Assembly (NCBI GenBank): GCA_016198905.1
Contig: JACQHR010000013.1
Coordinates: 6,153 to 70,152, forward strand
DNA: 64,000 bases
Source of the DNA: Candidatus Omnitrophota bacterium
Lineage (GTDB): Bacteria > Omnitrophota > Gorgyraeia > Aquiviventales > Aquiviventaceae
Reading direction: 5' to 3'
Position 1 is the first letter of the stretch. Every line of letters starts with the position of its first letter. The position numbers and the translations under genes are program-made. The notes below the pieces were generated by a model that saw only the letters and a program-made list of their open reading frames with translations, was not told where the DNA came from and did not search any database. Below are positions 1,357-64,000 of the stretch, in pieces.

Positions 1357-1382
1357 GTCGAGCGAGCGAGTCGAGCGAGCGA
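1357..1382. repeat. 13-bp direct tandem GTCGAGCGAGCGA x2
   Basis: Read directly at 1357-1369 and 1370-1382, in the methyltransferase-dprA gap. Confidence 0.7.
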
Positions 1383-1402
1383 TAGGAAGGAGGCGGCCGC
1401 GC

Positions 1403-2158
1403 TCACGGTGTTGCCGTCATCGGCCAGTCGATGAGCCCTGTCCCCGTATAATGCCCGAACGAGGTCAGGTCGAGTTTCGGAAAAGAGACATTCCTCCAAA
1501 TCTTGAGCATCTTCCATAGCCGGATGTCATCAAAAACCACCAACGGCTTGACGCGAAATGAGACCGTCCGGAGCAAATCGAGCAACGTTTGCTCCATCAC
1601 GCCATCCTTGGCGGCATCAATAAAGATGAAGCCCGCTTCTTGAATCAATGCGTCATGCTTGGAAAACACGGCCGGTTGGGTGAGATCATCGGTGTGAATG
1701 ACAAGCCGGCCATCGCTCAAATCCTCATCGTGCACAATCCCTGACGCGCGTATGGTGGGCAGATCGAGTACATCAAAGGTGACGATCTTCGCATCATCAG
1801 CAAGCGTCTGTTTCATCGCCAGCGCCGACAGGCCCGTGGCTGTGCCGATCTCAATGACGACTTTCGGCTGTAGAGTAGCGATGAGCCCGGCCAGAAGCTT
1901 ATAGTGCTCGCCCGGCCAAATGTCCGGGTAGTACGGAGGCTGCGGCAGCCGCGCTGAGAGATGCTCCAGTGCAATGGTCTGTGCGCGCTGAATGGCGTTC
2001 ACGGCAACTGATATCAGGTATGGTGATGGTTGTGCCGCGTCATCGTCGGCAGAAAACAGCATCGAATATTCCATGTGTCGTGCCTGCACCGGAGGAGCCG
2101 GACGGACTCGCGGGAGTCGTTTCTTGAACATCGTCGACATGGCGCTCATCGTTGCCAT
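1403..2158 (-). CDS. class I SAM-dependent O-methyltransferase (family-3 OMT-like)
   Basis: 251-aa ORF with SAM-binding motif I (VIEIGTATGLSALAM), then KIVTFDV and FIFIDAAKDG. These are typical of caffeoyl-CoA-type OMTs. Confidence 0.65.
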   Translation of the reverse strand: MATMSAMSTMFKKRLPRVRPAPPVQARHMEYSMLFSADDDAAQPSPYLISVAVNAIQRAQTIALEHLSARLPQPPYYPDIWPGEHYKLLAGLIATLQPKVVIEIGTATGLSALAMKQTLADDAKIVTFDVLDLPTIRASGIVHDEDLSDGRLVIHTDDLTQPAVFSKHDALIQEAGFIFIDAAKDGVMEQTLLDLLRTVSFRVKPLVVFDDIRLWKMLKIWRNVSFPKLDLTSFGHYTGTGLIDWPMTATP

Positions 2159-2171
2159 CCTCTGCGCTGTC

Positions 2172-2642
2172 TTATGGAGACCGGCTTGGGAGGCGCGTGA
2201 CGGTCAACAGGCGGGCGCGGTCGTTGAAACAAACGGTAAATTTGGTGAAGAAGCCTGCGCGCCCCATCAAGTTGAAGCCCATCCGCAGCGCATCGGAGAA
2301 TCCGGCCGGCACCAGAAACTCGGTACCCGCAAATCTCACCTTGATGTGCTGGAGATAAATCGGCAGCACGCTGCCGTTGCCGAGAGACACATAGCGCCGC
2401 TTGGCGCGGTTGAGTTTGATTCCCAACAGCTGTGCGACATCCACGTGGAAGACGCTCCACGAGGCCCCGGAATCCACATACGCTTGGAGGTACACCCATC
2501 GGTTGCCGGTCCAAACTTGCAGGTAGACGATCGGCGCGTAGTGCCCGTGCGCGTCTTTCATGTAGGGGAACTCGACATGCTGCAGGCTTGATGACTTCTT
2601 GAAGGACGAACGATCCATCAGGAAAAAATACCCACACCCCAC
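2172..2642 (-). CDS. retropepsin-like (clan AA) aspartic protease domain protein
   Basis: 156-aa ORF with the catalytic-type motif YVDSGASWSVF (D-S-G-A) in a small single-domain protein. The true start may be an internal Met. Confidence 0.5.
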   Translation of the reverse strand: MGCGYFFLMDRSSFKKSSSLQHVEFPYMKDAHGHYAPIVYLQVWTGNRWVYLQAYVDSGASWSVFHVDVAQLLGIKLNRAKRRYVSLGNGSVLPIYLQHIKVRFAGTEFLVPAGFSDALRMGFNLMGRAGFFTKFTVCFNDRARLLTVTRLPSRSP

Positions 2643-2646
2643 ACCT

Positions 2647-2726
2647 CAAGCTGCAAGCTGCAGGCTGTAGACTGCACAGGTATCATGGCCACCTGCGACT
2701 TGTGGCCTGAAGCTTGGGGCCTGAAC
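2647..2726. repeat. paired heptamer arrays (CAAGCTG family)
   Basis: Left array at 2647-2681: caagctg caagctg caggctg tagactg cacaggt. Right array at 2699-2726: cttgtgg cctgaag cttgggg cctgaac. The arms are partly complementary. Confidence 0.75.
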
Positions 2727-2742
2727 CATGGATTGTCAATCA

Positions 2743-3465: not shown

Positions 3466-3539
3466 CGCGACAGCACACAGCAGACAGCACACAGCAGACA
3501 GTAAAATCGTTCAACTCGCTCTCGTCCCTTTTGGTTCAT
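3462..3539 (-). CDS. candidate 25-codon upstream ORF (leader peptide) translationally coupled to aroK
   Basis: My own translation gives ATG at 3539 preceded by AAGAGGAAAG, with GAGGA 8 nt upstream. The peptide is MNQKGRERVERFYCLLCAVCCVLSR. The stop TGA (3464..3462) overlaps the aroK ATG (ATGA). The 3' half is encoded by the heptamer array. It is too short for the ORF track. Confidence 0.25.
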   Translation of the reverse strand: MNQKGRERVERFYCLLCAVCCVLSR

Positions 3540-3598
3540 CTTTGCTTTCCTCTTACTCAACGCACATTCTGTGTGCTGTGTGCTTAGTGCTGTTTGCT
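3471..3598. repeat. inverted heptamer arrays (CAGCACA / CTGTGTG) flanking a ~67-nt spacer
   Basis: Left array at 3471-3501: cagcaca cagcaga cagcaca cagcaga cag. Right array at 3569-3598: ctgtgtg ctgtgtg cttagtg ctgtttg. The reverse complement of the right arm matches the left arm at most positions. Confidence 0.85.
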
Positions 3599-4721: not shown

Positions 4722-4732
4722 CGAATAGTCCC

Positions 4733-4756
4733 GCCACGTGGCCACGTGGCCACGTG
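4733..4756. repeat. GCCACGTG x3 perfect 8-bp tandem (self-complementary CCACGTGG core)
   Basis: Read directly, in the pilD-aroC gap. Confidence 0.85.
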
Positions 4757-4781
4757 ACCACTGTGTCTCACTTGTTTCATG

Positions 4782-6522: not shown

Positions 6523-6529
6523 CAGAGAA

Positions 6530-6625
6530 GCACACAGCACACGGCACACAGCACACAGGATGGCCGAACGAAGAGGTTACGTTGCGTTTCCTGCTGTCTG
6601 CTGTCTGCTGTTTGCTGTCTGCTGC
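6530..6625. repeat. inverted heptamer arrays (GCACACA / CTGCTGT)
   Basis: Left array at 6530-6557: gcacaca gcacacg gcacaca gcacaca. Right array at 6591-6625: ctgctgt x3, ttgctgt, ctgctgc. There is roughly one mismatch per unit when the arms are paired. Confidence 0.85.
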
Positions 6626-8179: not shown

Positions 8180-8199
8180 TTCGTCTTCTCCTACGGACA

Positions 8200-8270
8200 T
8201 TTTGGATTTTGGATTTTTGATTTTGGATTGGACTGGTCATCTAAAATCCAAAATCGAAAATCTGAAATGC
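8200..8270. repeat. inverted heptamer arrays (TTTTGGA / AAAATCC) forming a hairpin
   Basis: Left array at 8200-8232: ttttgga ttttgga tttttga ttttgga ttgga. The loop is actggtcatct. Right array at 8243-8270: aaaatcc aaaatcg aaaatct gaaatgc. Confidence 0.85.
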
Positions 8271-8620: not shown

Positions 8621-9712
8621 TCACGACCGGCTCTTCGCCGTCTGCCGTAGGGCGGTTCGCTTCTGGTTCTTACTTCTGCCTACTGCCTTCTGCTGACTGC
8701 TTACTGCTGATTGCTTAGTGCTACTTCCAATCCAGGGCATCATGGCGCGCAGCTTAGCTCCGACTTGCTCGATGAGATGCTGTTCATCCTGCTGCATGAG
8801 TCGCGTGAAATTCGGGCGGCCGGCTTCATGCTCGGCGACCCATTCCTTTGCGAACTGACCCGACTGAATTTCCTTCAGCAATTGCTTCATCGTTTCTTTC
8901 ACGTGAGCGTCGATGACGCGCGGGCCGCAGTGGATGTCGCCCCACTTCGCGGTATCTGAGACGCGCTTGCGCATCCCCTGGATGCCGCTGGCCCAAAACA
9001 TGTCTGTGATCAATTTCAATTCATGCAGACATTCAAAGTACGCCACCTCGGGCTGATAGCCGGCCTCGACGAGCGTTTCGAATCCGGCTTTGATAAGCGC
9101 TGAGGCGCCGCCGCAGAGGACGGCCTGTTCGCCGAAATTGTCGGTCTCCGTTTCCTCTTTGAATGTCGTCTCGAGCACGCCGGCGCGCGTCGCCCCAATC
9201 CCTTTGGCCCATGCCAGCGCGATCGCTTTCGCCTGCCCCGTTGCGTTTTGATGGACCGCGATGAGGGCCGGCACGCCTTTGCCCTCTTGATATTGCGAGC
9301 GAACGAGGCTGCCAGGACCTTTCGGGGCGATCATCACGACGTCGACGCTCTTCGGCGGCTTGATCAACCCGTAGAGGATCGCGAAGCCGTGTGAAAATCC
9401 CAGCGCTTTGCCCGCTTTCAAGTTCGGCTCGATGGACTCCTTGTAAATCTGTCCTTGGAGCATGTCCTGCGCGAGCACGATGATGAGATCGGCTTTCTTC
9501 GTCGCCTCGGCGACAGACATCGGCGTAAACCCGTCGTGTTTCGCCAGGTCGAAGTTTGGTCCGCCAGGGCGCTGAGCGACAATGACCTTCACACCGCTAT
9601 CCCGCAGGTTCAATGATTGGCCGCGCCCTTGGATGCCGTAGCCGATCACCGCCACGGTCTTGCCCTTCAGCGCCTTGAGATCCGCGTCTTTCTCGTAGTA
9701 GATGTTCGCCAT
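8621..9712 (-). CDS. ilvC: ketol-acid reductoisomerase (class I) with a repeat-encoded C-terminal tail
   Basis: [40 protein letters not shown]... The KARI core ends near ...LRAMMPWI. The last ~30 aa ([35 protein letters not shown]) are read from the heptamer array at 8661-8726. Confidence 0.93.
8661..8726. repeat. heptamer array of ~9 units (TNCTGCN family) inside the ilvC 3' end
   Basis: ttctggt tcttact tctgcct actgcct tctgctg actgctt actgctg attgctt agtgcta. Confidence 0.8.
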
Positions 9713-9723: not shown

Positions 9724-9786
9724 TTTGTGCTTTCTGCTGTGTGCTGTGTGCTTACTGCTGGGTGCTGAGTGCTGTGTGCTGCTCAG
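9724..9786. repeat. heptamer array of 9 units (TGTGTGC family) upstream of ilvC
   Basis: tttgtgc tttctgc tgtgtgc tgtgtgc ttactgc tgggtgc tgagtgc tgtgtgc tgctcag. Confidence 0.85.
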
Positions 9787-10272: not shown

Positions 10273-10335
10273 CACGTGCATACGTGCAGATGCGCATACG
10301 TCCGCACGTCTACACGCCCACACGTCTGCACGTCG
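10273..10335. repeat. octamer array of 8 units (CACGTCTN family)
   Basis: cacgtgca tacgtgca gatgcgca tacgtccg cacgtcta cacgccca cacgtctg cacgtcgt. It lies in the ilvB-ilvN gap. Confidence 0.8.
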
Positions 10336-15629: not shown

Positions 15630-15692
15630 GCTCCAAGCTGCATGCCACAGAAAGCTGTGTTTCGCCTGAAGCCTGCAGCTTGTGGCTGGCAG
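15626..15692. repeat. degenerate CAAGCTG-family arrays/hairpin
   Basis: ccaagctgcatgccacagaaagctg ... cctgaagcctgcagcttgtggctgg. The same unit family occurs at 2647-2726. Confidence 0.55.
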
Positions 15693-15705
15693 CCGAGATC
15701 ATTCA

Positions 15706-17313: not shown

Positions 17314-17330
17314 GAGTTCTGAAGTTAGAT

Positions 17331-17409
17331 GCTGGAGACTGGAAGCTGGACAGGCTGAGTGTTCGACGCTGCTGTTTCCAGCTTCTAGCTTCCAATTTCC
17401 AGCTTCCTG
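17331..17409. repeat. inverted heptamer arrays (GCTGGAA / TTCCAGC) forming a hairpin
   Basis: Left array at 17331-17358: gctggag actggaa gctggac aggctga. Right array at 17375-17409: tttccag cttctag cttccaa tttccag cttcctg. Confidence 0.85.
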
Positions 17410-17412
17410 CTA

Positions 17413-18387: not shown

Positions 18388-18422
18388 AGCGACAAGCGAC
18401 ACGTGACACGCGACACGTACGA
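18388..18422. repeat. heptamer array of 5 units (NGCGACA family)
   Basis: agcgaca agcgaca cgtgaca cgcgaca cgtacga. It lies in the tmk-holB gap. Confidence 0.75.
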
Positions 18423-18458: not shown

Positions 18459-19082
18459 TCATGGGTGTATGCGTTTCATGATGAGAGATTCGAGTTGCGC
18501 GCGAACCGCGTCCACAGACTTGGACGCATCCACGATGACGACGCGCCGAGGGTCTCGCCGAGCCAGCTGCAGGTACCCGCGCCGCACCTGCTGATGGAAC
18601 TGCCGCGTCTTGCGTTCCATCCGGTCGTGCGACCGGCGCAGCCTGGCGAACCCTTGCGCCGTCGGGAGATCTAACACGATCGTCAGGTGCGGCATCACCC
18701 CATGAATGGCGTGACGGCCGAGCCGGTCAAGCCACGGCACATGCACGCCGCCGCCGTAGCCTTGATAGACGACCGTGGAGTCATGGAAGCGATCGCAGAC
18801 CACGACGTCGCCCTTGGCTAACGCCGGACGGATGCGCTCTTCCACCAACTGCACGCGCCCGCCGATAAACAAGAGCGCTTCCGCTAACGGCGAGAGGGGA
18901 GTGGTCGTGTGGAGGAGCAATTGGCGCGTCGCGCAGCCCACAGGCGTCGATCCCGGATCTTGCAGCCACACGACCCGGCGCCCCGCGCGCCGAAGCCGCT
19001 GCACCAGCCACCGTGCCTGCGTGGACTTGCCCGATCCCTCCGGGCCTTCCAGCGTGATGAAAAAACCTTTTCTTTCAGACAT
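18459..19082 (-). CDS. tmk: thymidylate kinase
   Basis: GFFITLEGPEGSGKSTQ (P-loop), the DRF motif (CDRFHDST), and 207 aa. Confidence 0.9.
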   Translation of the reverse strand: MSERKGFFITLEGPEGSGKSTQARWLVQRLRRAGRRVVWLQDPGSTPVGCATRQLLLHTTTPLSPLAEALLFIGGRVQLVEERIRPALAKGDVVVCDRFHDSTVVYQGYGGGVHVPWLDRLGRHAIHGVMPHLTIVLDLPTAQGFARLRRSHDRMERKTRQFHQQVRRGYLQLARRDPRRVVIVDASKSVDAVRAQLESLIMKRIHP

Positions 19083-19110
19083 CAGACCTCAGACTGCAGC
19101 ACAACAGACG
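19083..19110. repeat. heptamer array of 4 units (CAGACNN)
   Basis: cagacct cagactg cagcaca acagacg. It fills the whole cysS-tmk gap. Confidence 0.65.
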
Positions 19111-20280: not shown

Positions 20281-20297
20281 GCTGTGTGCTGTGTGCT
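20281..20297. repeat. (GCTGTGT)x2+GCT heptamer repeat at the cysS frame break
   Basis: Read directly. On the coding strand it is GCACACA GCACACA GC. Confidence 0.85.
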
Positions 20298-22027: not shown

Positions 22028-22157
22028 CAGCACAAAGCACAAAGCAGACAGCACAACACTTCCGCAGCAATGGTTTGTGGCATGAGATGCGACTGTTTCC
22101 TACTCAAATATGTCATCTACTTTGTGCTTTATGCTTTATGCTTTGTGCTGTGTGCTG
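22028..22157. repeat. inverted heptamer arrays (CAGCACA / CTTTGTG) flanking a ~60-nt spacer
   Basis: Left array at 22028-22058: cagcaca aagcaca aagcaga cagcaca. Right array at 22120-22157: ctttgtg ctttatg ctttatg ctttgtg ctgtgtg. The right arm lies in the ispD 3' end. Confidence 0.85.
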
Positions 22158-22856
22158 GACTCTATGGGACAGTATAGTTTCCGCGAGGATGAGATCATCT
22201 TTTGTCGTGACTTTGATATTGCGCGGATCGCCATGCACCATCCGAACCGGAAACCCGGCGGCTTCGAGGATGGCCGCGTCATCCGGAAATTGCTCGAGCT
22301 GCGATCCCGCCCGCGTCAGCGCCTGCGTGATCCATTCCCGACGGAACACTTGCGGCGTCTGCACCAACCAAAGCGACTCGCGATCCAATGTCAGCCGAAC
22401 ACCCTGTCGCTCATCGACGGCTTTGACGGTCACCGTCGCCGGCAACCCGCACGCCACCGCGCCTTCGCGCCGCGCTGCACGCACGGCGCGTGCGATCACG
22501 TCCGGCGTCACGCAGGGGCGCGCGCCATCATGGATGAGCACCCAGCGCGCCGCGCGCGGCACCACGGCACACCCGCGCGCAACCGAGGCTGCGCGCGAGG
22601 CTCCTCCCACGCATGGCAAAACCGCCTTGGTGATTGCATGCTGCTTGAGAAACGTACGCATCCGCGCTTGCTCGCCTGCGCGTACGACGACGATAATCCA
22701 GCGGATGTCGGGGCTGACTTGCAGAGCCGCCAGCGTGTGGGCCAGCAACGGCCGACCATGAAGCGGCGCGAACAGTTTCGATGGTGATCCGGTAAAACGC
22801 GTGCCGCTGCCGGCCGCCGGCACGACCGCGGCGACGTCCATCGAATGCTGTTTCAT
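22113..22856 (-). CDS. ispD: 2-C-methyl-D-erythritol 4-phosphate cytidylyltransferase
   Basis: VAAVVPAAGSGTRF..., VLIHDGARP and VQTPQVF. An alternative start is ATG 22841. The last ~15 codons lie in a heptamer array. Confidence 0.88.
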   Translation of the reverse strand: MKQHSMDVAAVVPAAGSGTRFTGSPSKLFAPLHGRPLLAHTLAALQVSPDIRWIIVVVRAGEQARMRTFLKQHAITKAVLPCVGGASRAASVARGCAVVPRAARWVLIHDGARPCVTPDVIARAVRAARREGAVACGLPATVTVKAVDERQGVRLTLDRESLWLVQTPQVFRREWITQALTRAGSQLEQFPDDAAILEAAGFPVRMVHGDPRNIKVTTKDDLILAETILSHRVQHTAQSIKHKAQSR

Positions 22857-22960
22857 GTTTCACGTTCCAAGTTTCATGTTGCGGGCAACAAACGCCGAAG
22901 CTTTGATTCCCTACCCTGTCAACTTCGAACCTGAAACCTGAAACCTGAAACTTGGAACAT
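22850..22960. repeat. inverted heptamer arrays (GTTTCAT / GAAACCT)
   Basis: Left array at 22850-22884: gtttcat gtttcac gttccaa gtttcat gttgcgg. Right array at 22926-22960: cgaacct gaaacct gaaacct gaaactt ggaacat. Confidence 0.8.
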
Positions 22961-25444: not shown

Positions 25445-25577
25445 AGTAAGCAGTAAGCAGAATGCAGAAGGCAGCAAGCTATCGGATGAGCCGTGTCGTT
25501 CGGATCTGTATTGCTCGGCTTGTAATAAAACAGTGTGCGCACGCTGCCTACTGCTTACCGCCTGCTGCTTTCTGGCC
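25445..25577. repeat. inverted heptamer arrays (AGTAAGC / GCTGCCT family)
   Basis: Left array at 25445-25479: agtaagc agtaagc agaatgc agaaggc agcaagc. Right array at 25543-25577: gctgcct actgctt accgcct gctgctt tctggcc. The right arm overlaps the mlaD 3' end. Confidence 0.8.
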
Positions 25578-27167: not shown

Positions 27168-27174
27168 CTAGGCT

Positions 27175-27246
27175 GGGGCGTGGGGCACGAGACGTGGGGC
27201 GCGGGAACCGGCTCTCCCCCGTCTCCTGTCTCCCGCCCCTTGCCCC
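27175..27246. repeat. GC-rich palindromic element, family C copy 1 (fills the mlaE-mlaF gap; inverted orientation)
   Basis: GGGGCGTGGGGCACGAGACGTGGGGCGCGGGAACCGGCTCTCCCCCGTCTCCTGTCTCCCGCCCCTTGCCCC. Its reverse complement begins GGGGCAAGGGGCGGGAGACAGGAGACG, identical to the first 27 nt of the lnt copy. Confidence 0.85.
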
Positions 27247-27250
27247 ATGC

Positions 27251-35726: not shown

Positions 35727-35778
35727 TCTTCACCTCGTTGCAGTGGATGCCCAACCACAGCTCGTACCGCATCGATTA

Positions 35779-35800
35779 GCACACAGCACACAGCACACAG
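35779..35800. repeat. GCACACA x3 perfect heptamer tandem
   Basis: Read directly, in the lysS-mntA gap. Confidence 0.85.
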
Positions 35801-37605: not shown

Positions 37606-39297
37606 TTATCGAAGACGTGCTATCATCCAACCGAGGATGCCGATGAGGCAAGCCCAAGCGAACCAGTCACCCCAACGCTCATAGAGGGTGCGGGTGTAGC
37701 TCAGCGGGACATCACACGCGTGCGTGCCGGCAATGAAGAGTTCGCGACCCTGTTCATCGTGAACGCTTCCAAGAATGCGACCGGCGGGATCGATGCAGCC
37801 GGACCATCCCGTGTTGGCCGCGCGCACCACCGGCACCCGCAGCTCCACCGCGCGGAAGATCGAGGTCTGCGCGTGCTGATAGGCCGCCGCCGTCGGCCCG
37901 AACCACGCGTCGTTGGTGATGACCACCAGCATCCGCGCCCCTTCTTGGACAAACCGTCGCGCAAGCTCAGGAAACACATCTTCGAAACAGATGAGGACGC
38001 TGAACGGGGGCAAGGGGCGGGAGACAGGAGACGTGGGAAAACCGGTTTTCCCTCGCCCCTCGTCTCTCGCCCCCCGCCCCAGCACATCAGCTTCTTGCTC
38101 AATATGAAATACGGTGTGGTGATGCCCACGATCGAAGTCGCCGATCGGCGGCAACAGGCGGCGCAGCCACGGCAAGGTGCGTTCAAAGGGCACGAACTCG
38201 CCGAACGGGACCAGGTGCAGCTTGTCATAGCGCTGATCGATGACGCCGCGATGATCGACGAGTGCTGCGCTGTTGGTCATCATCCACTCCACGCCATCAA
38301 GATGTCCCATTGGAGCGCCCACCAACAGGGGTGCTTTCACCGACTTGGCAAGCGCAAAGACGCGCTGCGTGATCTCCTCATCGAGCCCGAAATAGCCCGG
38401 CACGGAAGTCTCCGGCCAGACGATGAGATCAGGCTCGGTGCGCGCAGCTTCACGCGTGAGCGTTTCGTACTGCGTCAAGATCCGCTCCTGGAACGCTTCG
38501 TCCCATTTCTCAGTTTGAGGGATGTTGCCCTGCGCCACCGCTACCCTGATCGATGAGGCATCGACGATGCTGCTGATGCGCCACGCGCCGTAGCCAAGCC
38601 CAATGAGGACGAGGATCATGACGCACGCCGCGCGAATAAGAACGGATTGTGTGCGTTTTCCGCCCCCCACCCCCCCGGCCCGCCGATTACTACCGTCGGG
38701 GCGGGCCCGCCCCCTGCCCCAAACTGTCGTGCTGATGTAGTCCGCAATCGCCGCATTCCCCATCACGATCAGGAACGATATCCCCCACGCGCCGGTCAGA
38801 TCTGCGAACTGAATGAGCGGCCGCCACGACGTCTGCGAATACGCCAGCAGATTCCAGCCCATCCCCGTGAGGACGTGGCTGCGCGCAAACTCCAGCGTCA
38901 CCCACAGCGCAGGAATCACAATCAGACTCCGGACACCAGATCTCAGACCACAGACAAACCTACCCTGATGTCTGATGTCTGATGTCTGATGTCTGACGAC
39001 GCACCAGCCGAAGATCCCGAAATAGAGCGCGAGGTACGCGCACAGCACGAGCCACCCGACGACGGTGACATAGATCAGCCACCACATCGAGCCGAGGAAG
39101 AACAGTGCACCGATGAGATACGACCACCAAAACGCCGCGCGCGATGACGTCGTGCGCAACAGCAACAGCCACGGAACGAAAGCAATCCACGCGCACCAGG
39201 GCTGATTGAAATTCGGAAATGACAGGACGAGCAGGATGGCGCTACTGAGCGCCGGCAACAGAGGACGAACGATGCGGGACAAACGACGCGTGGTCAA
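37606..39297 (-). CDS. lnt: apolipoprotein N-acyltransferase, carrying three repeat-derived insertions
   Basis: N-terminal multi-TM region plus a CN-hydrolase domain with E/K/C motifs (VWPETSVPG; YDKLHLVPFGE; VLICFED). The suggested start is TTG 39297, which overlaps the upstream stop (TTGA). The ORF-track Met at 39393 would overlap the upstream gene by 100 nt. Confidence 0.85.
   Translation of the reverse strand: MTTRRLSRIVRPLLPALSSAILLVLSFPNFNQPWCAWIAFVPWLLLLRTTSSRAAFWWSYLIGALFFLGSMWWLIYVTVVGWLVLCAYLALYFGIFGWCVVRHQTSDIRHQGRFVCGLRSGVRSLIVIPALWVTLEFARSHVLTGMGWNLLAYSQTSWRPLIQFADLTGAWGISFLIVMGNAAIADYISTTVWGRGRARPDGSNRRAGGVGGGKRTQSVLIRAACVMILVLIGLGYGAWRISSIVDASSIRVAVAQGNIPQTEKWDEAFQERILTQYETLTREAARTEPDLIVWPETSVPGYFGLDEEITQRVFALAKSVKAPLLVGAPMGHLDGVEWMMTNSAALVDHRGVIDQRYDKLHLVPFGEFVPFERTLPWLRRLLPPIGDFDRGHHHTVFHIEQEADVLGRGARDEGRGKTGFPTSPVSRPLPPFSVLICFEDVFPELARRFVQEGARMLVVITNDAWFGPTAAAYQHAQTSIFRAVELRVPVVRAANTGWSGCIDPAGRILGSVHDEQGRELFIAGTHACDVPLSYTRTLYERWGDWFAWACLIGILGWMIARLR
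38006..38080. repeat. GC-rich palindromic element, family C copy 3 (inside lnt; 75 bp)
   Basis: GGGGGCAAGGGGCGGGAGACAGGAGACGTGGGAAAACCGGTTTTCCCTCGCCCCTCGTCTCTCGCCCCCCGCCCC. This is an imperfect palindrome centred on AACCGGTT. Confidence 0.85.
38660..38720. repeat. GC-block palindromic element, family D copy 2 (inside lnt)
   Basis: CCGCCCCCCACCCCCCCGGCCCGCC-gattactaccgtc-GGGGCGGGCCCGCCCCCTGCCCC. Confidence 0.7.
38923..39000. repeat. inverted heptamer arrays (CAGACNN / TGATGTC) inside lnt
   Basis: Left array at 38923-38957: cagactc cggacac cagatct cagacca cagacaa. Right array at 38966-39000: tgatgtc x4 perfect, then tgacgac. The module is 78 nt (26 codons) and the frame stays open. Confidence 0.85.
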
Positions 39298-39935: not shown

Positions 39936-39960
39936 CGGTGGGCCTTATTCCAACCACCCG

Positions 39961-39997
39961 CACGCCAGCACGTCTGCACGTCTACACGTATGCACGG
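39961..39997. repeat. octamer array (CACGTCTN family, same units as 10273-10335)
   Basis: cacgccag cacgtctg cacgtcta cacgtatg cacgg. It lies in the secA-downstream gap. Confidence 0.8.
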
Positions 39998-39999: not shown

Positions 40000-42900
40000 C
40001 TATTGCCCATGACACTTCTTGTACTTCTTATTGCTACCGCACGGGCAGGGCTCGTTGCGACCGACTTTGGGGCCTGTGTGTTGCGTTGGACTTCGAGGCT
40101 GGAGGCTGGAGGCTGGAGGCTGGAGGCGTTTCTCCGAAGCTTGGAGCCTGGAGCCTGGAGCCGAACCTATTGGAAGCGTTGATGCTTCATCAGTGAGAGG
40201 AGCGGGAATGAAGCGCGCGGCTTCCGAGGCCTCGGGATGGACTTCTTGCACCGGCGTTCTAGCGAACACGCTGACAGGGCGCGCCTCAGCCGCAACGGGC
40301 TGTACACGCAACAGCATCGTCAGCGAATCCAGCTTGATGGACTCGATCATCACTTGAAACAATTCGTGGGCTTCGCGCTGATATTCGACGACGGGATCGC
40401 GCTGGCCGTAGGCGCGCAAGTGGATGCCTTCGCGCAACGCATCCATCATGTAGAGATGGTCTTTCCATTTTTGATCCATGATCGAGAGCAGGACGGTGCG
40501 CTCCAGCTGCGCCATCATCTCCGGGCCGATCGAGACCCGCTTCGCCTCATAGGCCTGCTCGAAGGCGTGCGTGATGGCCGCGCCAATGGCGTCGCGGTCT
40601 GCGATCGTCGCTTCTTCGCCGAGCGTCACCATGAACTGGCGGCCGGCGGCTTCGCGCAACCCGGCGAGGTCCCAGGCATCCGATCGCAGTTCGTTGGAGG
40701 CAAACGTGCTAAGCAGGCCATCGGCGACCTCTTTGATGATTTCGCGGACAAGACCCTGGAGGTCCACTCCTTCGAGAATCCGACGGCGCTGCTCATAGAT
40801 GACCTCGCGCTGCCGGTTCATCGTGCTGTCGTACTCGACGAGTTGTTTCCGGATATCAAAGTTGTGGCCCTCGACGCGCCGCTGCGCGGTCTCAATGGCT
40901 TTCGAGACCATCCCGTGCTCGATCGGCAAGCCCTCTTCCCATTTAAACCACGGCAGCTCCATCAGCTTCGCGATGCGATCCGAGCCGAAAATGCGCATCA
41001 AATCATCTTCGAGGGAGAGATAAAACCGCGAGGATCCCGGATCGCCCTGACGGCCGGAACGACCGCGCAACTGATTGTCGATGCGGCGCGCCTCATGGCG
41101 CTCGGTGCCGAGCACGTGCAGGCCTCCGACAGCGACGACTTGTTCGTGTTCAGACTCGCAGAGTTTCTTGAATCGCTCGACGATGGCGTGCCGCTCAGTC
41201 TCCTCCAGCGGGGCTTGGCGCTTCTCTTCCTCGGCGCGGATGGCGTCATCCGCCAGCGCTTGAGGATGGCCGCCAAGGAGAATGTCGGTGCCTCGTCCGG
41301 CCATGTTGGTGGCGATCGTGAGCGCGCCTTTGCGGCCGGCCTGGGCGACGATGTGCGCTTCATGCTCATGATATTTGGCGTTGAGGACGTTGTGCGGCAG
41401 CCCGGCCTTGATGGTCGCTGCGGTCTGCACGAGACGCACGATGTCCTCGAGCCTGAAGATGAGCGTCGACTTGGGCGCCTCGCGCTTGAGTTGCGCCAAC
41501 CACTCGCCGACTTGCGCATCCGTGAGGGTCGCCGGCCGCGCGAGTCCTTGTTCAAGCGACGTGCGCAGCGCGTCGCCGAGCGATTCCTTCTTCAGCTCCT
41601 CCAGCGTCCACTGACACACCGTGCTCAACCGCTTCATGATGGGGCCGGGCTCTTTCAGGAACCGCGAGAGCCGCTCGGACTTCTCGATCGAGATCGTGCC
41701 GATGAGCACCGGCTGTCCGGCGCGGTAATGACTGACGATTTCCTGCACGACCGCGAGAAATTTCTCATCCTCGGTTTTATACACCGTATCCGCAAAGTTG
41801 GCGCGGATGAGCGGGCGATTGGTCGGGATGGCCAAGACGTCGAGCTGGTAGATCGTGCTGAACTCCTGCGCTTCGGTGGACGCGGTGCCGGTCATGCCGG
41901 CGAGCTTTTCGTACATGCGGAAGTAATTCTGAAAGGTCACCGAGGCCAGCGTTTGATTCTCTTCGCGAATCCGCACGTTTTCCTTCGCCTCGATCGCTTG
42001 ATGGAGCCCATCGCTCCAGCGCCGTCCCGGCATCAGACGCCCCGTGAACTCATCCACGATGATGATCTCGCCGTCCTTGACCATGTAGTCCACGTCGCAT
42101 TTGAAGAGCTCGTGCGCGCGCAGCGCCTGATTGATGTGATGCACGAGGCGCATGTTCATCTCGTCGTAGAGATTGCCGACCCCGAGCAGCTCTTCGCAGT
42201 GCTTGATGCCCTCTTCCGTGAGACTGACACCTTGCTCTTTCTCATCCACTTCGTACTCCGCGCCTTTGTTCAACCGGGCGACCAATTTATCCAGCTTGTA
42301 GTAGAGCTCGGTCGACTCTTCGGCGGGGCCGGAGATGATGAGCGGTGTTCTGGCTTCATCGATCAAAATGCTGTCGACTTCATCCACGATGGCATAGTGG
42401 TACTCACGTTGGACGAGATCTTCGAGGCGAAACCGCATGTTATCGCGCAGGTAGTCGAAGCCGAACTCGTTGTTCTGCCCGTAGGTGATATCGGCCGCGT
42501 AGGCCTCTTTGCGCGGCACCGGCCGCAGGTGCATAAAGCGCTCGGCCGTCTGCGTCCAGGAGGGATCGTAGAGAAAGGAGAGCGACTCTTCTCCCGGTCG
42601 CCGCTCAGCCGGATCCACACCCTGGATGACGCCGAGGGTGAGCCCCAGCGCGTGATAGATCGGCCCCATCCAGCGCGTATCGCGGCGCGCAAGGTAGTCG
42701 TTGACCGTCACGATGTGCACACCGCGGCCCGTCAGGGCGTTGAGATACGCAGGCAGGGTCGCCACGAGCGTCTTGCCTTCCCCGGTTGCCATCTCCGAAA
42801 TCTTGCCCTCGTGCAGCACCATGCCGCCCATGAGCTGCGTATCGAAGTGCCGCATGTTCAGCACCCGTCGGCTCGCCTCTCGCACGACCGCGAAGGCTTC

Positions 42901-43198: not shown

Positions 43199-43230
43199 CT
43201 GTGTGCTTTCTGCTTAGTGCTGTGTGCTGG
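43199..43230. repeat. heptamer array (CTGTGTG family) spanning the prfB stop / secA start gap
   Basis: ctgtgtg ctttctg cttagtg ctgtgtg ctgg. Confidence 0.8.
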
Positions 43231-51021: not shown

Positions 51022-51603
51022 TTACCAGTTCTCAACCGTGCGCTCGACGATGCGTCGAGCTAGATCAGTCAGCGCGCGGTCAAGCGCTTGGGATTCGGTT
51101 TCCACCGTCACGTTGTTCCCCGAGGCGAAATAACTCGTATCCCCCGTGAGGCGCTCCTCTTCCCAAATGATGGCGTTGTTCGATTGATCGATGAAGCGCA
51201 GATTGACGACGACGTTGAGCCGCCACTCCTCCACCTGCTGCTGGGCGTTGTAGCGCAACGCATCGCGGCGAAACTCCACGAGCTCGCCTTCCAGGCGCGT
51301 ATCCGCGCGATCTTGGCTCGACGGGCGCATGAGTCCGGTAAACTGGAACCGGTTGATCACGGCGTTGGTCAGATCGACTTCCATGCGGTGGCGATAGATC
51401 GGATACTGTTCAGTCCCGGACGTCAGCCGCGTGACATCGATCTTGTTCGCGAAGGGTTTGATGTAGACGGTCTTATAGTTGGAGGGCAAGCCGGGTCGAG
51501 CGGAGTAGCCGCATCCGGCAGACAGCAGACAGCAGACAGCAGACAGCACAAAAGAACAACACCACTTTCTGTGTGCTTTGTGCTGTGTGCTTTGTGCTTC
51601 CAT
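51022..51603 (-). CDS. lptE: LptE-like outer-membrane lipoprotein
   Basis: Lipoprotein signal peptide with lipobox LSAGC, followed by GYSARPGLPSNYKTVYIKPFANK.... The size and the position between bamD and holA fit LptE. The ATG overlaps the bamD stop (TAATG). Confidence 0.55.
   Translation of the reverse strand: MEAQSTQHKAHRKWCCSFVLSAVCCLLSAGCGYSARPGLPSNYKTVYIKPFANKIDVTRLTSGTEQYPIYRHRMEVDLTNAVINRFQFTGLMRPSSQDRADTRLEGELVEFRRDALRYNAQQQVEEWRLNVVVNLRFIDQSNNAIIWEEERLTGDTSYFASGNNVTVETESQALDRALTDLARRIVERTVENW
51517..51601. repeat. inverted heptamer arrays (AGCAGAC / TGCTNTG) encoding the lptE signal peptide
   Basis: Left array at 51517-51551: ggcagac agcagac agcagac agcagac agcacaa. Right array at 51567-51601: ttctgtg tgctttg tgctgtg tgctttg tgcttcc. 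Confidence 0.85.
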
Positions 51604-56664: not shown

Positions 56665-56747
56665 TCCGGTTAGGCCCGTTTTGCCCGTTAGGCCCGTTAG
56701 CATGACAACCGGCTCAACCGGCAAAACCGGCTTAACGGGCACAACGG
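56665..56747. repeat. inverted 9-mer arrays (GCCCGTTAG / NAACCGGCN) forming a hairpin
   Basis: Left array at 56665-56700: tccggttag gcccgtttt gcccgttag gcccgttag. Right array at 56705-56747: acaaccggc tcaaccggc aaaaccggc ttaacgggc acaacgg. Confidence 0.8.
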
Positions 56748-59227: not shown

Positions 59228-59233
59228 TTTTGC

Positions 59234-59374
59234 AGCACTAAGCACACAGCAGACAGCACACAGTAGGAAACTTGAGTGCCAGTGAAATGTGTCGGAAGGA
59301 GCCGTGAGGCTGTCTTAGTTGTCCCCTGTCCACTTTGTGCTTTGTGCTTTCTGCTTTGTGCTTTCTGCTTAACG
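59234..59374. repeat. inverted heptamer arrays (CAGCACA / CTTTGTG) flanking a ~64-nt spacer
   Basis: Left array at 59234-59268: cagcact aagcaca cagcaga cagcaca cagtagg. Right array at 59333-59374: ctttgtg ctttgtg ctttctg ctttgtg ctttctg cttaacg. Confidence 0.85.
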
Positions 59375-61448: not shown

Positions 61449-61467
61449 TTCGCTGATCCCAAGTCTC

Positions 61468-63975
61468 TCAGATCACAATATTGACCAGACGCTTAGGCAC
61501 AACAATGAATTGCTTCATAGTTTGGCCGTCGACGAACTTCCTGACCTGCTCGTTGGCGAGCACGATCGCTTTCAATTGCTCCTCGCCGATGTCCGACGGC
61601 ACGACGATGCGCGCGCGGACTTTGCCGTTGACCTGGACAACCAGCGTGACCTCGGCTTCGTGCAACGTGGCCGCGTCAAAGGCGGGCCATGGCGCGTGGG
61701 CGAGGCTCTCATGATGACCCAACCGCCACCAGAGCTCTTCACATAGATGTGGCGCGTACGGCGCGAGCAGCAGGACGAACGTTTCGATCGCGGATTCCGG
61801 CAGCGGCGTGGCGTCTTCGAGCGCGCTGAGCAGCACCATCATCGAGGAGATCGCGGTATTGAACCGCAGCTGCTGCGTATCGTCGGTCACTTTCTTGATC
61901 GTCGCGTGCAGCGTGCGTTTCAACGCCGCCTCCACCGGCACATCCTTCAGCTGCGGATTGAGCCCGGTCTCCGTCACGATCACGCGCCAGAGGCGATTCA
62001 AGAACCGATCGATGCCCTCGATGCTGCGCGTGCTCCACGGCTTGACCGCTTCGAGCGGACCCATGAACATCTCGTACATCCGAAATGCGTCCGCGCCGTG
62101 CGCATTGATCACATCATCGGGATTGACGACGTTGCCGCGCGACTTGGACATCTTCTCGCTGTCTTCGCCGAGGATGAGGCCTTGGTTGATCAGTTTGTGA
62201 AACGGCTCGGCCGTCGAGACGAATTTGAGATCGTAGAGGACCTTATGCCAGAAGCGCGCGTACAGCAGATGCAGCACCGCGTGCTCCGCTCCGCCGATGT
62301 AGAGATCGACCGGCATCCAATAGCGCTCTATCTTGGCATCCCATGCGCGCTGCGTGTTGTGCGGATCGAGATAGCGCAGATAGTACCAGCACGAACCGGC
62401 CCATTGCGGCATGGTGTTGGTTTCGCGCTCGGCAGGACCGCTGCACTGGGGGCATTTCGTCTGCACCCAATCTTTCGCTTTCGCTAGTGGAGGCTCTGCG
62501 GTACCGGTTGGTTTGAAGTCGGCCATGTCTGGCAACGTCAAGGGCAGCGAAGACTCTGGCAGCGGCACGGTGCCGCATGTCGCGCAGTGAACGATCGGAA
62601 TCGGCTCGCCCCAATACCGCTGGCGAGAGAACAACCAATCGCGGAGTTTATAATGGACAATGCGCACGCCAATGCGGTGCGGGGGATCTTTCTTTGAGAG
62701 CCAGTCAATAATCTTGCCCTTAGCTTCCTCGCTAGGCAAGCCGGTAAACGCGCCAGAGTCGTGCATGCGCCCTGGATCGGCGTACGCCTGGGTCAAACTG
62801 TCCGCGTCGAGCTGTTTACCTTCCGGCACAATCACCACACGTACCGGCAGCTGATACTGCCGGGCAAACTCGAGATCGCGCTGGTCATGGGCAGGGACGG
62901 CCATGATCGCGCCGGTACCGTAGCTGGCCAGCACATAGTCGGCGATCCAAATGGGAATCTTCGCTCGAGAATCAGAAGATTCAAAAACAGGATTTATCGC
63001 ATAGGCGCCTGTAAAAATACCGGTTTTCGTTTTTGCAAGATCGGTTCTTTCGAGTTCGCTTTTTCGAGCTACCTCATACTGATACTGCTCAACCGCTTCA
63101 CGATAGTCATCGGTGGTAATATCTCGAACTAGGGGGAGCTCTGGAGCAAGCACCAGATAGGTGGCGCCGAACAGAGTATCGGGTCTTGTTGTAAACACGG
63201 GAATCTGCGCTCTCACACCCTTCCCCGGAAACGTACTCATATGCTTTCTCGTCGCGGTAGTGTCCACGGTGAAGAGGATCTCGGCTCCCTCGCTCTTGCC
63301 GATCCAGTGGCGCTGCATCTCTTTGATGTGCTCGGGCCAGTCCAACGACTCGAGGTCGGCGAGCAAACGATCCGCGTACGCCGTGATCTTCAGCATCCAC
63401 TGGCGCATCGGCTTGCGCTCCACCGGATGGCCTTTGCGCTCGCACTTGCCGTCGACGACTTCTTCATTCGCCAGCACCGTGCCACACGCAGGACACCACC
63501 ACACGGCCGCATCCGCCATGTACGCCAGGCCGCGATGGTAGAGCTGCAGAAAAATCCACTGCGTCCATTTCACGTAGCCCGGATCGGTGGTGTTGAGTTC
63601 ACGATCCCAATCATAGGAAAATCCCAGGCGTTCAATCTGCCGTTTGAAGGTCTCGATGTTCTTGCGCGTGGTGATGGCGGGATGCGTGCCGGTTTCAATC
63701 GCATACTGCTCGGCGGGCAGGCCAAACGCATCCCATCCCATCGGATGCAGCACGTTGTAGCCTTGCATACGTTTGAAGCGCGCGACGATGTCCGTCGCGG
63801 TGTACCCTTCAGGATGCCCAACGTGCAGTCCGGCCCCTGATGGATACGGAAACATATCGAGGATATAAAACTTTGGCTTCGCGCCGCCGTCGGTGGCCCG
63901 GAACGTCTTGTGTTCCTGCCAATACCGCTGCCATTTCGGTTCGATGTCGGAAAAGGGATATTTGTCAGCCATCAC
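61468..63975 (-). CDS. leuS: leucine--tRNA ligase
   Basis: 835 aa. [16 protein letters not shown] (HIGH), KMSKSRGN and a CP1 editing domain. The first codon is GTG 63975, with an ATG at 63972. Confidence 0.95.
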
Positions 63976-63979
63976 GATT

Positions 63980-64000
63980 CAGCACAAAGCAGAAAGCACA
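63980..64000. repeat. start of a heptamer array (CAGCACA family) upstream of leuS, truncated by the window edge
   Basis: cagcaca aagcaga aagcaca. Confidence 0.7.

Follow-up and report, generated by a model that had tools for sequence, protein, structure and literature searches.

Known heptamer repeats and hairpin elements

Tandem heptanucleotide repeats known as STRRs are reportedly found in heterocystous cyanobacteria, their description being credited to Mazel et al. in 1990. The arrays studied here come from a 64,000-nt stretch of DNA (the window) of an NCBI "Candidatus Omnitrophica" MAG, and an earlier note on this DNA aptly likened them to STRRs, as both are tandem heptamers with copy numbers from a few into the tens, are lineage-specific and largely outside coding DNA, and often lie between co-transcribed genes. 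However, STRRs use a handful of genome-wide units, whereas we found 98 distinct heptamers among 189 Omnitrophota arrays, with favorites that differ genome by genome; the latter usually form complementary pairs across a junction, have additional in-frame copies in coding sequences, and belong to a host that is not a cyanobacterium. The RPEs of Rickettsia, which Ogata et al. are said to have reported in 2000, are likewise described as copies of a conserved element of ~100 to 150 bp inserted in protein-coding genes. The likeness lies in palindromic DNA being tolerated in frame at surface regions of essential proteins, while the inserts that we describe are hairpins of tandem heptamers, and at one site different genomes have different units. 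In the coat-replicase coupling of phage MS2, a stem keeps the downstream start hidden, to be opened by the ribosome that arrives from the upstream gene. Our junctions have a geometry that would fit coupling of this type, a resemblance that appears to be functional only, as the known cases involve unique sequences and the Omnitrophota stems have tandem-repeat arms.

The heptamer SSRs of Xanthomonas (GGGAATC) and Nostoc (GGGGAYT) are ~90% intergenic and lie near the end of the upstream ORF, 70 to 75 Xanthomonas loci have two convergent arrays capable of forming a stem-loop, and both copy number and sequence vary at conserved positions between related genomes (PMC4692102). The same work describes these convergent pairs and puts the excess of heptamer SSRs down to slippage of the polymerase (PMC4692102). 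Our arrays share the position by the upstream ORF end, the convergent pairs, and the variation at conserved positions, but the Xanthomonas and Nostoc repeats have one G-rich, G-quadruplex-capable unit, whereas the Omnitrophota units are diverse and mostly not G4-prone, affect nearly every junction, and also form in-frame hairpins within genes. The TAACTGA repeats of marine Beggiatoaceae occur in 2 to 6 copies that end a few nucleotides before starts without a canonical RBS, in some cases overlap the upstream ORF end, and show indels in 7-nt steps between strains; they consist of a single unit in direct repeats, with one inverted case in 170 and stops in all frames (PMC4679880). Short heptamer arrays near SD-poor starts, some of them overlapping the upstream ORF end, are common to both systems, and the inverted paired arms and many units are what distinguishes Omnitrophota. 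Last, REP/BIME and REPIN sequences, which are conserved within a family, bear GTAG/CGTC tags, and are associated with a RAYT transposase, are like our elements in being intergenic palindromes between co-transcribed genes that can form mRNA hairpins in mosaic arrangements (PMC3116915, PMC3733652). The arrays of Opitutales in particular look mosaic in this way, but no conserved sequence was seen in the Omnitrophota elements, and their arms are tandem repeats. It is the paired heptamers of diverse units, at junctions and in frame, that set the Omnitrophota arrays apart from STRRs and from the repeats of Xanthomonas and Beggiatoa.

Tandem arrays in the window

Arrays were called with TRF (overlaps removed; period of 7, 8, or 9; at least 2.8 units), and 20 first-order Markov shuffles of the window served as the control. 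The window contains 40 arrays (32 of period 7, five of period 8, and three of period 9) versus ~1.5 in the shuffled sequence (range, 0 to 4), and non-coding DNA, which is 5.4% of the window in the curated gene map, holds 64% of the array bases, an enrichment of ~12-fold. The arrays of the earlier note, essentially all of which were recovered by TRF, are therefore real and stand out against the composition of the DNA. Two entries in its list of CAGCACA-family loci had to be corrected: the unit at 19075-19094 is TCAGACA, which is outside that family, and the locus at 20281-20297 is a 7-nt duplication within cysS. Its statement that all genes are on the minus strand is correct except for rpsT (49955-50221), on the plus strand; all elements located below are on the minus strand.

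Among the 13 pairs of TRF-adjacent arrays in the window, the only non-complementary one is at 39960-40127, and hairpins with one degenerate arm were found beyond these pairs at mlaE>mlaF, mlaD>radA, holB>metG, and metG>CAAX. Of the 57 adjacent pairs in the clade, 51 show at least 70% complementarity, compared with 7% for arms from different loci, and the proposed architecture of complementary tandem arrays forming stems that bridge the gap from stop to start is borne out. Folding z scores against dinucleotide shuffles are about -1 to -4.7 for paired-array gaps and -1.3 to +2.4 for array-free gaps. Array length is narrow (~4 to 5 units; mean arm, 30 nt), variant units in one arm have no mirror in the other, and the loops are unique non-repeat DNA of up to ~100 nt.

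The repeats could be imagined as multivalent targets of a protein that recognizes 7-nt units in single-stranded nucleic acid (RNA or DNA), with the complementary arm as an anti-site, and cold-shock or S1-domain proteins would be the candidates, as has been proposed for the Beggiatoa TAACTGA repeats (PMC4679880). The 7-nt period fits the binding of one CSP per heptamer discussed in the same work (PMC4679880), and 3' arms adjoin start codons without an SD. Nevertheless, the 98 units are unrelated and hence not one specific binding site, arrays are also present in CDSs and tails, and most are predicted to be base paired rather than single stranded, so we regard this explanation as very improbable.

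Gene junctions

The median spacing is 4 nt from the stop codon to the first array and 6 nt from the last array to the start. At aroC>aroK (3469..3598), a (CAGCACA)n 5' arm extends from the stop codon and a (TGTGCTG)n 3' arm stops 3 nt short of the ATG at 3465. Comparable hairpins occupy the junctions aroK>asp-protease (2647..2725; CAGCTTG and CTTCAGGCC-type units), leuA>aroE (6529..6624; CAGCAGA/TGTGCTG), hyp129>uvrD (59233..59370; GCACAAA/GCAGAAA versus TGTGCTG), and holB>metG (17316..17411; CTGGAAG/CCAGCTT, the 3' arm being under the TRF threshold). The hairpin of metG>CAAX (15630..15705) is made of imperfect repeats, with a z score of -3.9; 8-mers of the ACGTGCAG type form that of ilvB>ilvN (10274..10334), and 9-mers that of pilZ>comEC (56669..56745), which has a terminator-like stem upstream. 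Two further hairpins include the start codon: at hyp100>leuA (8199..8268; GATTTTG/CAAAATC), the 3' arm enters the ATG of leuA, which completes one CCAAAAT unit, and at PIN>ispD (22849..22951; GTTTCAG and (C/G)TGAAAC), the ispD start ATGAAAC is the final repeat unit of the 3' arm. These two cases are ones in which the arms seem to have been seeded from local sequence.

Other junctions have a single array, namely the self-complementary 8-mer array (GCCACGTG)n of pilD>aroC (4733..4761), the (CAGCACA)x8 array of ilvN>ilvC, followed by the SD-like AAGGAAAAGG (9726..9781), a GTGTCGC-type array that ends 7 to 9 nt before the ATG at tmk>holB (18389..18418), a short GTCTGAN array that overlaps the tmk start at cysS>tmk (19075..19094), a (TGTGCTG)n array at lysS>mntA (35778..35800), and an 8-mer array of the ACGTGCAG type at secA>hyp213 that begins 3 nt past the stop codon (39960..39996). 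A 3'-type array adjoins the start of leuS (63981..64000), any partner arm of which would lie past the end of the window.

A terminator reading of the hairpins was rejected, as a T-run follows only 1 of 57, and transcription should therefore read through them. The geometry makes start-codon occlusion or translational coupling at the junction stems plausible, and we considered that they may be selected RNA elements of polycistronic mRNAs, either for obligate stop-start coupling or as RNase III processing or stability sites, for which the intercistronic sites of phage T7 provide the model with long stems. In the coupling version, the downstream start would be exposed only upon upstream termination, in an SD-poor organism. 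A stem with arms of tandem repeats would survive shifts in register. The stems that bridge the gap, the expected read-through, and the nature of the genome, SD-poor and with nearly all genes co-oriented, agree with this. A strong SD is present in 0 of 14 hairpin junctions and in 5 of 18 array-free gaps, which points in the same direction, although the contrast is statistically weak. We nonetheless consider a selected RNA element rather unlikely, on account of the evidence given below on coding sequences, strand symmetry, and related genomes and of the variant units that are not mirrored between arms.

Elements in coding sequences

At least 10 arrays are inside or run into CDSs (lysS, lnt twice, secA, lptE, and the tails of ilvC, ispD, mlaD, and prfB). 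The tails include a translated single array in ilvC (8676..8722), the ispD>ispF hairpin (22029..22156), in which the (CACAAAG)n 5' arm is the C terminus of ispD and the 3' arm ends 6 nt upstream of the ispF ATG, the mlaD>radA hairpin (25448..25575), with the mlaD stop codon within the 5' arm, and a single CAGCACA-type array at prfB>secA (43199..43229), which forms the C-terminal tail of prfB, crosses its stop codon, and adjoins the secA ATG. Within ORFs, lysS contains an in-frame hairpin array (36060..36134; -60.5 kcal/mol) situated in the loop RRRFEAQL...IDEDF, lnt contains one in-frame hairpin of CAGACAT/GTCTGNG units (38940..38996, with an array at 38965-38996) and a G-rich one (38030..38085, with an array at 38050-38080), and the secA C-terminal linker contains translated paired arrays, CCAGGCT/CCAGCCT (40095..40162). 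The translated hairpin array of lptE (51518..51598) forms the N-terminal signal peptide, the 5' arm coding for the charged n-region and the 3' arm for the hydrophobic core and the lipobox LSAGC. Since they are also found in frame within essential genes, the elements are, contrary to the earlier note, not specifically intercistronic spacers, and an intercistronic function, coupling included, cannot apply to the paired arrays inside lysS, lnt, secA, and lptE.

In cysS (20281..20297), a 7-nt tandem duplication (AGCACAC x2.4) splits the ORF, and when one AGCACAC unit is deleted, the frame is restored and the sequence is that of a normal CysRS. We interpret the duplication, which is an actual one, as a fresh event of the slippage process discussed below.

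The G-rich element is a dispersed family with three copies in 64 kb, one each in lysS, lnt, and a hairpin at mlaE>mlaF (27170..27250), which share 72% identity over ~100 nt including the loop; the lnt insert has both its unit and its loop (GGGAAAACCGGTTTTCCC) in common with that of lysS. Such copies could point to small mobile palindromes of the MITE, REPIN, or RPE kind that a transposase would mobilize in trans into junctions and occasionally in frame into genes. The unit families favored by each genome and the unique loops, as if inserted, are in line with this, and the in-frame palindromes recall what is reported of Rickettsia RPEs. On the other hand, the diverse units come without common termini or internal sequence, as none shared across elements was seen, and the seven hairpins of the CAGCACA family have loops unrelated to one another. 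Moreover, arms appear to be seeded by the local start-codon sequence, no transposase gene was seen within the window, no target-site duplications were noticed in an unsystematic look, and the differences in unit at the LysRS, secA, and lnt sites are more simply obtained by turnover in situ than by re-insertion. Mobile elements are thus quite improbable in our judgment.

Strand symmetry

Of the 57 pairs, 28 fold better in the sense strand and 29 in the antisense strand (Wilcoxon P = 0.97), and G·U pairs (133/1652 in sense versus 129/1662 in antisense) show no sense-strand excess; folds of equal stability mean that no signature of RNA-specific selection is seen. The CAGCACA-type arm had been described as always 5' on the mRNA, which is true of all pairs seen but says nothing about the polarity of transcription, because [A]n-loop-[A']n keeps the same layout when it is reverse complemented. 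Of 49 informative hairpins, 36 have a purine-rich 5' arm (P = 3e-5), and 5' arms with G>C number 37 versus 13. Such a bias could reflect a constraint, co-transcriptional or translational, as selected RNA would allow, and a purely neutral process does not predict it.

Gain, loss, and turnover in related genomes

TRF rows in 335 kb of the clade numbered 146 at period 7, 57 at period 14, and 5 at period 21, and the other 1.68 Mb of loci gave 46 rows at period 7; periods 6 and 12, which would be frame-neutral, were not enriched. The junctions of the array-free relatives L162 and L163 measure -8 to ~20 nt, and where they are compact, L161 has hairpins of 90 to 146 nt, which indicates that the arrays are insertions into formerly compact junctions. 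The sister genomes thus use overlapping junctions without hairpins, and comparison of junctions across relatives showed that a pre-existing SD was simply kept downstream of the hairpin at clpC and mlaD, both points against selected RNA elements; formerly overlapping pairs such as lolC>lolD have no SD. What selected elements could better explain is that the same junctions carry hairpins in many genomes despite different units. Similar arrays, however, fill a divergent intergenic (promoter) region in Opitutales, which again departs from an intercistronic role.

Turnover of units was also observed inside genes. About two-thirds of the 70 closest LysRS homologues have inserts of 15 to 35 amino acids at the same loop, and the remainder lack one. 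The inserted peptides are translations of hairpin arrays of different units; at the DNA level, the window, L161, and L162 have stems with energies of -54 to -62 kcal/mol, and L163 has no insert. The fixed sites of secA and lnt behave in the same manner, with a unit that differs between genomes.

As the window comes from a MAG and assemblers have difficulty with tandem and inverted repeats, artefacts of assembly or amplification in short-read metagenomes were considered. Their probability is negligible, as dozens of independent assemblies, made by different pipelines, contain the elements, as does an Opitutales chromosome assembled from long reads, the inserts in CDSs stay in frame in many LysRS homologues, and L161 and L165, with one SNP in 21.5 kb, have identical arrays.

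Origin and consequences of the arrays

Among the roles listed in the earlier note, the evidence overall favors the last, in which the arrays are the footprint left by slippage peculiar to the lineage. The explanation that we prefer, with an evenly balanced degree of belief, is that these are palindromic heptamer microsatellites, generated by slippage and intra-palindrome copying and kept where they do little harm. A mutational process that prefers 7-nt steps (8 or 9 nt more rarely) would duplicate short local sequence, probably by replication slippage, and intra-palindrome copying, either template switching or quasi-palindrome conversion, would maintain the match between the arms rather than compensatory selection at the RNA level. 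Whole elements may occasionally be copied from locus to locus. Selection clears arrays from most coding DNA.

Several observations weigh against this explanation. Slippage leaves the origin of the unique loops unexplained, the narrow array length hints at constraint, and stems that end at starts without a strong SD fit a selected coupling device equally well. Complementarity kept inside CDSs over long divergence requires either a hypothetical efficient conversion or selection.

The arrays accumulate where a very compact, one-strand, operon-rich genome tolerates them. Such places are the DNA directly past a stop codon, in junctions whose ancestral state was an overlap or a gap of a few bases, the ends of proteins, and, with the frame kept, surface loops or linkers. 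In the mRNA, a junction element would place the upstream stop and the downstream start at the base of one stem, a fold that plausibly preserves termination-dependent (coupled) initiation, and as coupled initiation would still work, the insertion may be nearly neutral. The repeats of these Omnitrophota therefore look like the output of a lineage-specific DNA repeat-generating process and not like a designed RNA signal.

Genes and host of the window

The window has a GC content of 0.61 and codes for about 58 housekeeping genes (dprA, aroK, aroC, aroE, pilD, leuA, ilvBNC, tsaB, tsaE, thiL, metG, holB, tmk, cysS, ispD, ispF, radA, mlaDEF, clpC-mcsAB, ilvE, lolCD, lysS, lnt, secA, prfB, uvrC, murJ, holA, lptE, bamD, comEC, uvrD, and leuS). 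The minus strand carries 57 of the 58 called genes, the sole plus-strand gene being rpsT (49955-50221), and together with this extreme strand bias we observed many overlapping junctions (ATGA or TAATG) and few strong Shine-Dalgarno (SD) sites. NCBI protein MBI3996606.1, encoded by a MAG labeled "Candidatus Omnitrophica bacterium," matches the LysRS of the window at 100% identity. Scans with ilvC and aroE gave other Omnitrophota MAGs as the nearest genomes, all with fully conserved gene order and some labeled "uncultured Planctomycetales." The otherwise syntenic lysS-lnt-secA region contains toxin-antitoxin pairs at differing spots, MntA/HepT in the window (35114-35726) and a ParE-type pair in the array-rich relative L161 (7422-7960), which comes from a groundwater run.

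Start codons of the window were curated by hand, and those of L161, L162, and L163 were taken from database gene calls; automatic start calling cut genes short or ran into arrays. Because gene callers push ORFs through stop-free arrays, starts and C termini are systematically misannotated in these MAGs.

Paired arrays at gene junctions

The earlier note had described short tandem arrays in most gaps between genes, and Tandem Repeats Finder (TRF) recovers arrays at essentially every locus it had named. The 40 nonoverlapping arrays of the window have periods of 7 (32 arrays), 8 (5 arrays), and 9 nt (3 arrays), compared with 0 to 4 arrays in Markov shuffles. The proposed enrichment in gaps also holds, as the noncoding 5.4% of the window contains 64% of the array bases. 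Across the 335 kb of clade loci, TRF gives 146 rows of period 7. Arrays of this period are about 17-fold denser in the clade than in the remaining fetched loci (1.68 Mb), and the repeat phenomenon is lineage-specific.

Read on the coding strand, a typical junction consists of a stop codon, array A, a unique spacer, array A' made of the reverse-complement units, and a start codon, with medians of 4 nt from the stop to the first array and 6 nt from the last array to the start (13 junctions with two TRF arrays). Complementary arrays occur together far beyond chance, since 51 of the 57 neighboring pairs in the clade (335 kb) are at least 70% complementary, versus 7% for arms from different loci. 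Folding gave z scores against dinucleotide shuffles of about -1 to -4.7 for gaps with paired arrays and -1.3 to +2.4 for array-free gaps. The hairpin regions have a mean GC content of 0.49, versus 0.61 for the genome. Arm length is narrowly distributed around a mean of 30 nt; the correlation of arm lengths (rho, -0.25) is uninformative.

The statement that the CAGCACA arm, belonging to the commonest unit family, always lies 5' on the mRNA does not survive as a polarity, because [A]n-loop-[A']n reverse-complements to the same arrangement; this palindrome symmetry rules out transcription polarity as its meaning. Among the 57 clade hairpins, purine-rich 5' arms outnumber the opposite 36 to 13 (p = 3e-5) and G exceeds C in 37 versus 13, a bias that is likewise no strand effect, since a palindrome reads alike on both strands. 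Tolerance of translated tails and avoidance of transient C-rich RNA are two possibilities for this preference.

Arrays inside genes

Besides the gaps, coding sequences also contain the elements, which the earlier note had missed. Paired arrays lie in frame in lysS (36060-36134), in lnt at two places (about 38030-38085 and 38940-38996), and in the C-terminal linker of secA (40095-40162). The N terminus of LptE is a full hairpin, whose 5' arm codes for the charged n-region and whose 3' arm codes for the hydrophobic core and the lipobox LSAGC, and the C-terminal tails of IlvC, IspD, MlaD, and PrfB are translated single arrays.

The locus reported at 20281-20297 is a 7-nt duplication (AGCACAC AGCACAC) inside cysS, where it breaks the ORF into two. 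Removal of one AGCACAC unit from the split gene (19111-20539) restores an intact CysRS that continues beyond ...ARQEIAHS. A genuine frameshift allele, heterogeneity in the population, or an error in the consensus could each account for the split, and the duplication has the appearance of heptamer duplication caught in action.

Comparison with related genomes

A comparison of orthologous gaps, called for in the earlier note, revealed unrelated hairpin units at the same junction in different genomes and, in some genomes, no hairpin. The units are CTGGAAG, GTGTAAT, or AAAGGCA between holB and metG; GATTTTG, GGCTGCA, CTCAGGG, or CATCAGA between hyp100 and leuA; and CAGCAGA, GTTCGTG, or GAGTTGC between leuA and aroE. 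By database gene calls, the array-free junctions of the relatives L162 and L163 overlap or span a few bases (prfB-secA, -8; lysS-lolC, -1; lolC-lolD, 3; lolD-ilvE, -4; mlaE-mlaF, -4 or 4), and L161 carries hairpins of 90 to 146 nt at lysS-lolC, lolC-lolD, mcsB-clpC, mlaE-mlaF, and mlaF-mlaD. The lolC-lolD junction is an ATGA overlap in the window and a 146-nt hairpin in L161. Where an SD existed beforehand (clpC and mlaD) it is kept downstream of the hairpin, and formerly overlapping genes have none. Given these short junctions and the retained SDs, the arrays behave like sequence that was inserted, or has expanded, into junctions that were compact in the ancestor.

Coding sites present the same turnover. 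Inserts of 15 to 35 residues occur in the LysRS loop RRRFEAQL...IDE(D/G)F in about two-thirds of the 70 closest homologs, the rest having none. The inserted peptides (GSRLKAQGK...LQPSALSLE, GLGAEGSGQ...PRAPSPEP, and GAGDGGRGK...PHAPRPTP) are translated from purine-rich arrays and complementary pyrimidine-rich ones. In the window, L161, and L162 the insert DNA forms stems (-54 to -62 kcal/mol), and L163 lacks the insert; L162 has the LysRS hairpin despite its array-free junctions. L161 also has paired arrays in secA (6234-6295) and lnt (9055-9119), with units that differ from those of the window. Such persistence of a palindrome at a given coding site, despite a change of unit in both of its arms, speaks for concerted in situ evolution. 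In an all-against-all megablast of the clade loci, the only matches were between L161 and the locus L165 (one SNP, identical arrays) and between the array-free L163 and L164. That the arrays are an assembly artifact is scarcely credible, as independent assemblies carry identical arrays and the reading frame is conserved across homologs.

Inverted pairs of arrays also occur over long range. In L005, the leuA-aroE gap (13029-13135) and the pilD-aroC gap (14797-14865) are reverse complements of each other, spacer included, and flank the aroE-pilD segment of about 1.8 kb. In L161, (TCAGAGG)x20 and (TCTGACT)x6.7 arrays (2365-2503 and 3151-3196) lie on either side of a 152-aa ORF. All the relatives compared (L001 and L003 to L007) have a small membrane-protein gene with its own flanking arrays between ilvN and ilvC; the window lacks it and has instead an unpaired, unusually long CAGCACA x8 array (9726-9781), with a second array of the same sense in the ilvC tail (8676-8722). 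This suggests that the window lost the gene through recombination between direct arrays.

Two Opitutales MAGs (L018 and L021) have much denser, nested arrays of 7-, 8-, and 9-mers in every intergenic region, and in L021 one array-filled region lies between divergent, Pfam-verified genes, the only divergent case obtained, as the Omnitrophota loci have too few minus-strand genes to supply others. The units include AATTAGG, CACAAAAGG, TCGCAAAGA, CCTTTGTG, and others, set around GGCGCC-type GC stems, and they form mosaics (e.g., L021 6091-6577, 12329-12592, and 17125-17408) in which the same families return across loci.

Possible RNA-level signals

Selection may have shaped the hairpins as RNA devices that serve coupling or processing, a reading that we consider possible but rather unlikely. 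If selection on the mRNA had kept the arms paired, mismatches would be expected to favor G·U on the sense strand, and stability would be expected to be higher for the sense fold. It is not: the sense fold is the more stable in 28 of 57 hairpins and the antisense fold in 29 (p = 0.97), G·U pairs number 133 in sense and 129 in antisense, and unit variants are not mirrored from one arm to the other. Strong SDs are found in 0 of 14 hairpin gaps versus 5 of 18 array-free gaps, a difference that is suggestive but discriminates weakly in a genome that is SD-poor overall.

A more specific version, which we think doubtful, would make the hairpins a selected, lineage-wide device of Omnitrophota and perhaps Opitutales, in which register-tolerant stems of tandem heptamers juxtapose a stop and the next start for ribosome hand-over or RNase III cutting, the copies in coding sequences being spill-over. 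Hand-over would here be termination and reinitiation across the stem, analogous to ribosome shunting, and the genes of very long, SD-poor operons would be translated in this way or their mRNA cut into defined units.

Intrinsic (Rho-independent) terminators were rejected as an identity for the hairpins, as a T-run follows just 1 of the 57. Terminator-like sites in positions 1-20000 of the window were not above shuffle expectation, Rfam 15 at the gathering threshold gave no match in the window, and ARAGORN found no tRNA or tmRNA there.

Some gaps have features of their own. The aroC-aroK loop (3466-3567) contains an SD-like AAGAGGA followed by an ATG, opening a 33-codon ORF that runs through the 3' arm and ends at a TGA overlapping the aroK ATG (ATGA); the pattern is absent from the uvrD gap, the sole other gap checked, by eye. 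The tsaB-ilvB gap (12094-12145) has a TATAAT-like box, GTGTTATAAT / GCTATAAT, conserved in all relatives (L001 to L005); as it lies only about 12 to 16 nt before the ilvB ATG, it suggests an ilvB mRNA with a very short leader or near-leaderless. After pilZ, a terminator-like stem, ACGCAGGAGAGAGACGCTCTCTTCTGCGTTTCTTATT (56745-56790), precedes the 9-mer hairpin upstream of comEC; here the hairpin may lie in a 5' leader and not between coupled genes. Two long GC-rich gaps (53775-54233, 459 nt; 20540-20796, 257 nt) have no heptamer arrays and no Rfam match and contain other inverted repeats (28-nt arms, 54140-54228; 14-nt arms, 53896-53972; 17-nt arms, 20628-20676); they may represent RNAs that lack annotation or repeats of another class.

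Origin of the arrays

The 189 clade arrays comprise 98 distinct canonical heptamers, with each genome having its own favorites and the top unit of the window accounting for seven arrays. That heptamer-reading binding proteins explain the arrays seems to us very improbable. For some 3' arms the nearby start region has visibly served as the seed: the 3' array before ispD has the gene's own ATGAAAC as its last unit, and a CCAAAAT unit is completed by the ATG of leuA.

Some copying between loci did take place, since a G-rich element is present in lysS, lnt, and the mlaE-mlaF gap with a shared loop, GGGAAAACCNGTTYTCCC, and 72% identity over about 100 nt. Miniature elements mobilized in trans are nevertheless an improbable source, and a single mobile-element family is rejected, because the seven hairpins of the CAGCACA family have loops that bear no relation to one another.

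We give about even credence to the elements being palindromic heptamer microsatellites that arise from slippage with a 7-nt bias and copying within the palindrome. Such a process would build and remodel hairpin-forming arrays, which would survive where they do little harm, and an mRNA fold that zips stop to start would probably preserve coupled translation.

Comparison with known repeats

The STRR heptamer repeats of heterocystous cyanobacteria use a small set of units genome-wide (STRR1-3). The arrays described here share their 7-nt tandem units (32 of 40 window arrays) but have no small unit set, with 98 heptamers in 189 arrays, and their hosts are Candidatus Omnitrophica/Omnitrophota MAGs instead of heterocystous cyanobacteria. 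REP/REPIN elements are a conserved family of 20- to 40-bp palindromes present in many copies and associated with RAYT (a Y1 transposase), whereas our elements have no sequence in common and even hairpins of the same unit have unrelated loops; Pfam scans of the window ORFs (64 kb of the genome) found no RAYT. Rickettsia palindromic elements (RPE) lie in frame in protein-coding genes, as do the palindromes in lysS, lnt (twice), and the secA linker. RPE share a consensus of about 100 to 150 bp; here the three G-rich copies align at 72%, and other inserts, as well as orthologous inserts in other genomes, use unrelated units. MITEs have terminal inverted repeats, a target-site duplication, and internal sequence conserved among copies; here the loops are unique, the arms are tandem arrays, and an unsystematic look noticed no target-site duplication.

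An excess of heptamer SSRs in bacteria has been attributed to polymerase slippage (PMC4692102, citing Mrazek 2007), and Xanthomonas has 70 to 75 convergent GGGAATC pairs close to upstream ORF ends (PMC4692102). Our arrays are similarly intergenic, near the upstream ORF end (median, 4 nt), and in convergent pairs (51/57 complementary), but their units are diverse, unlike the single G-rich, G4-forming GGGAATC, and G-rich solely in the lysS/lnt/mlaF family. In Beggiatoa, direct TAACTGA repeats adjoin start codons that lack an RBS (PMC4679880); here the distance from the 3' arm to the start has a median of 6 nt and strong SDs are found in 0 of 14 cases, but each such arm is half of an inverted pair, and SDs are rare throughout the genome. 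No description of the phenomenon came up in literature searches that paired tandem or intergenic repeats with Omnitrophota, Opitutales, or Verrucomicrobia. New here are the lineages that host the arrays, the extreme diversity of units, a hairpin from stop to start at nearly every junction, and palindromes that lie in frame in essential genes and whose units turn over.

Significance

On the RNA-level reading, if it holds, operons of a candidate phylum would be translated by a mechanism that is both new and very widespread. On the DNA-level reading, if that one holds, the clade offers a natural laboratory in which to study how 7-nt slippage combines with copying from one palindrome arm to the other. 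This mutational process, of which little is understood, would reshape gene junctions, could break genes (cysS), and would write new peptide segments into essential proteins (the LysRS loop, the SecA linker, and the LptE signal peptide). Comparing sister genomes with and without arrays could then identify the responsible repair or replication factor, for which SbcCD and single-stranded DNA exonucleases are first guesses.
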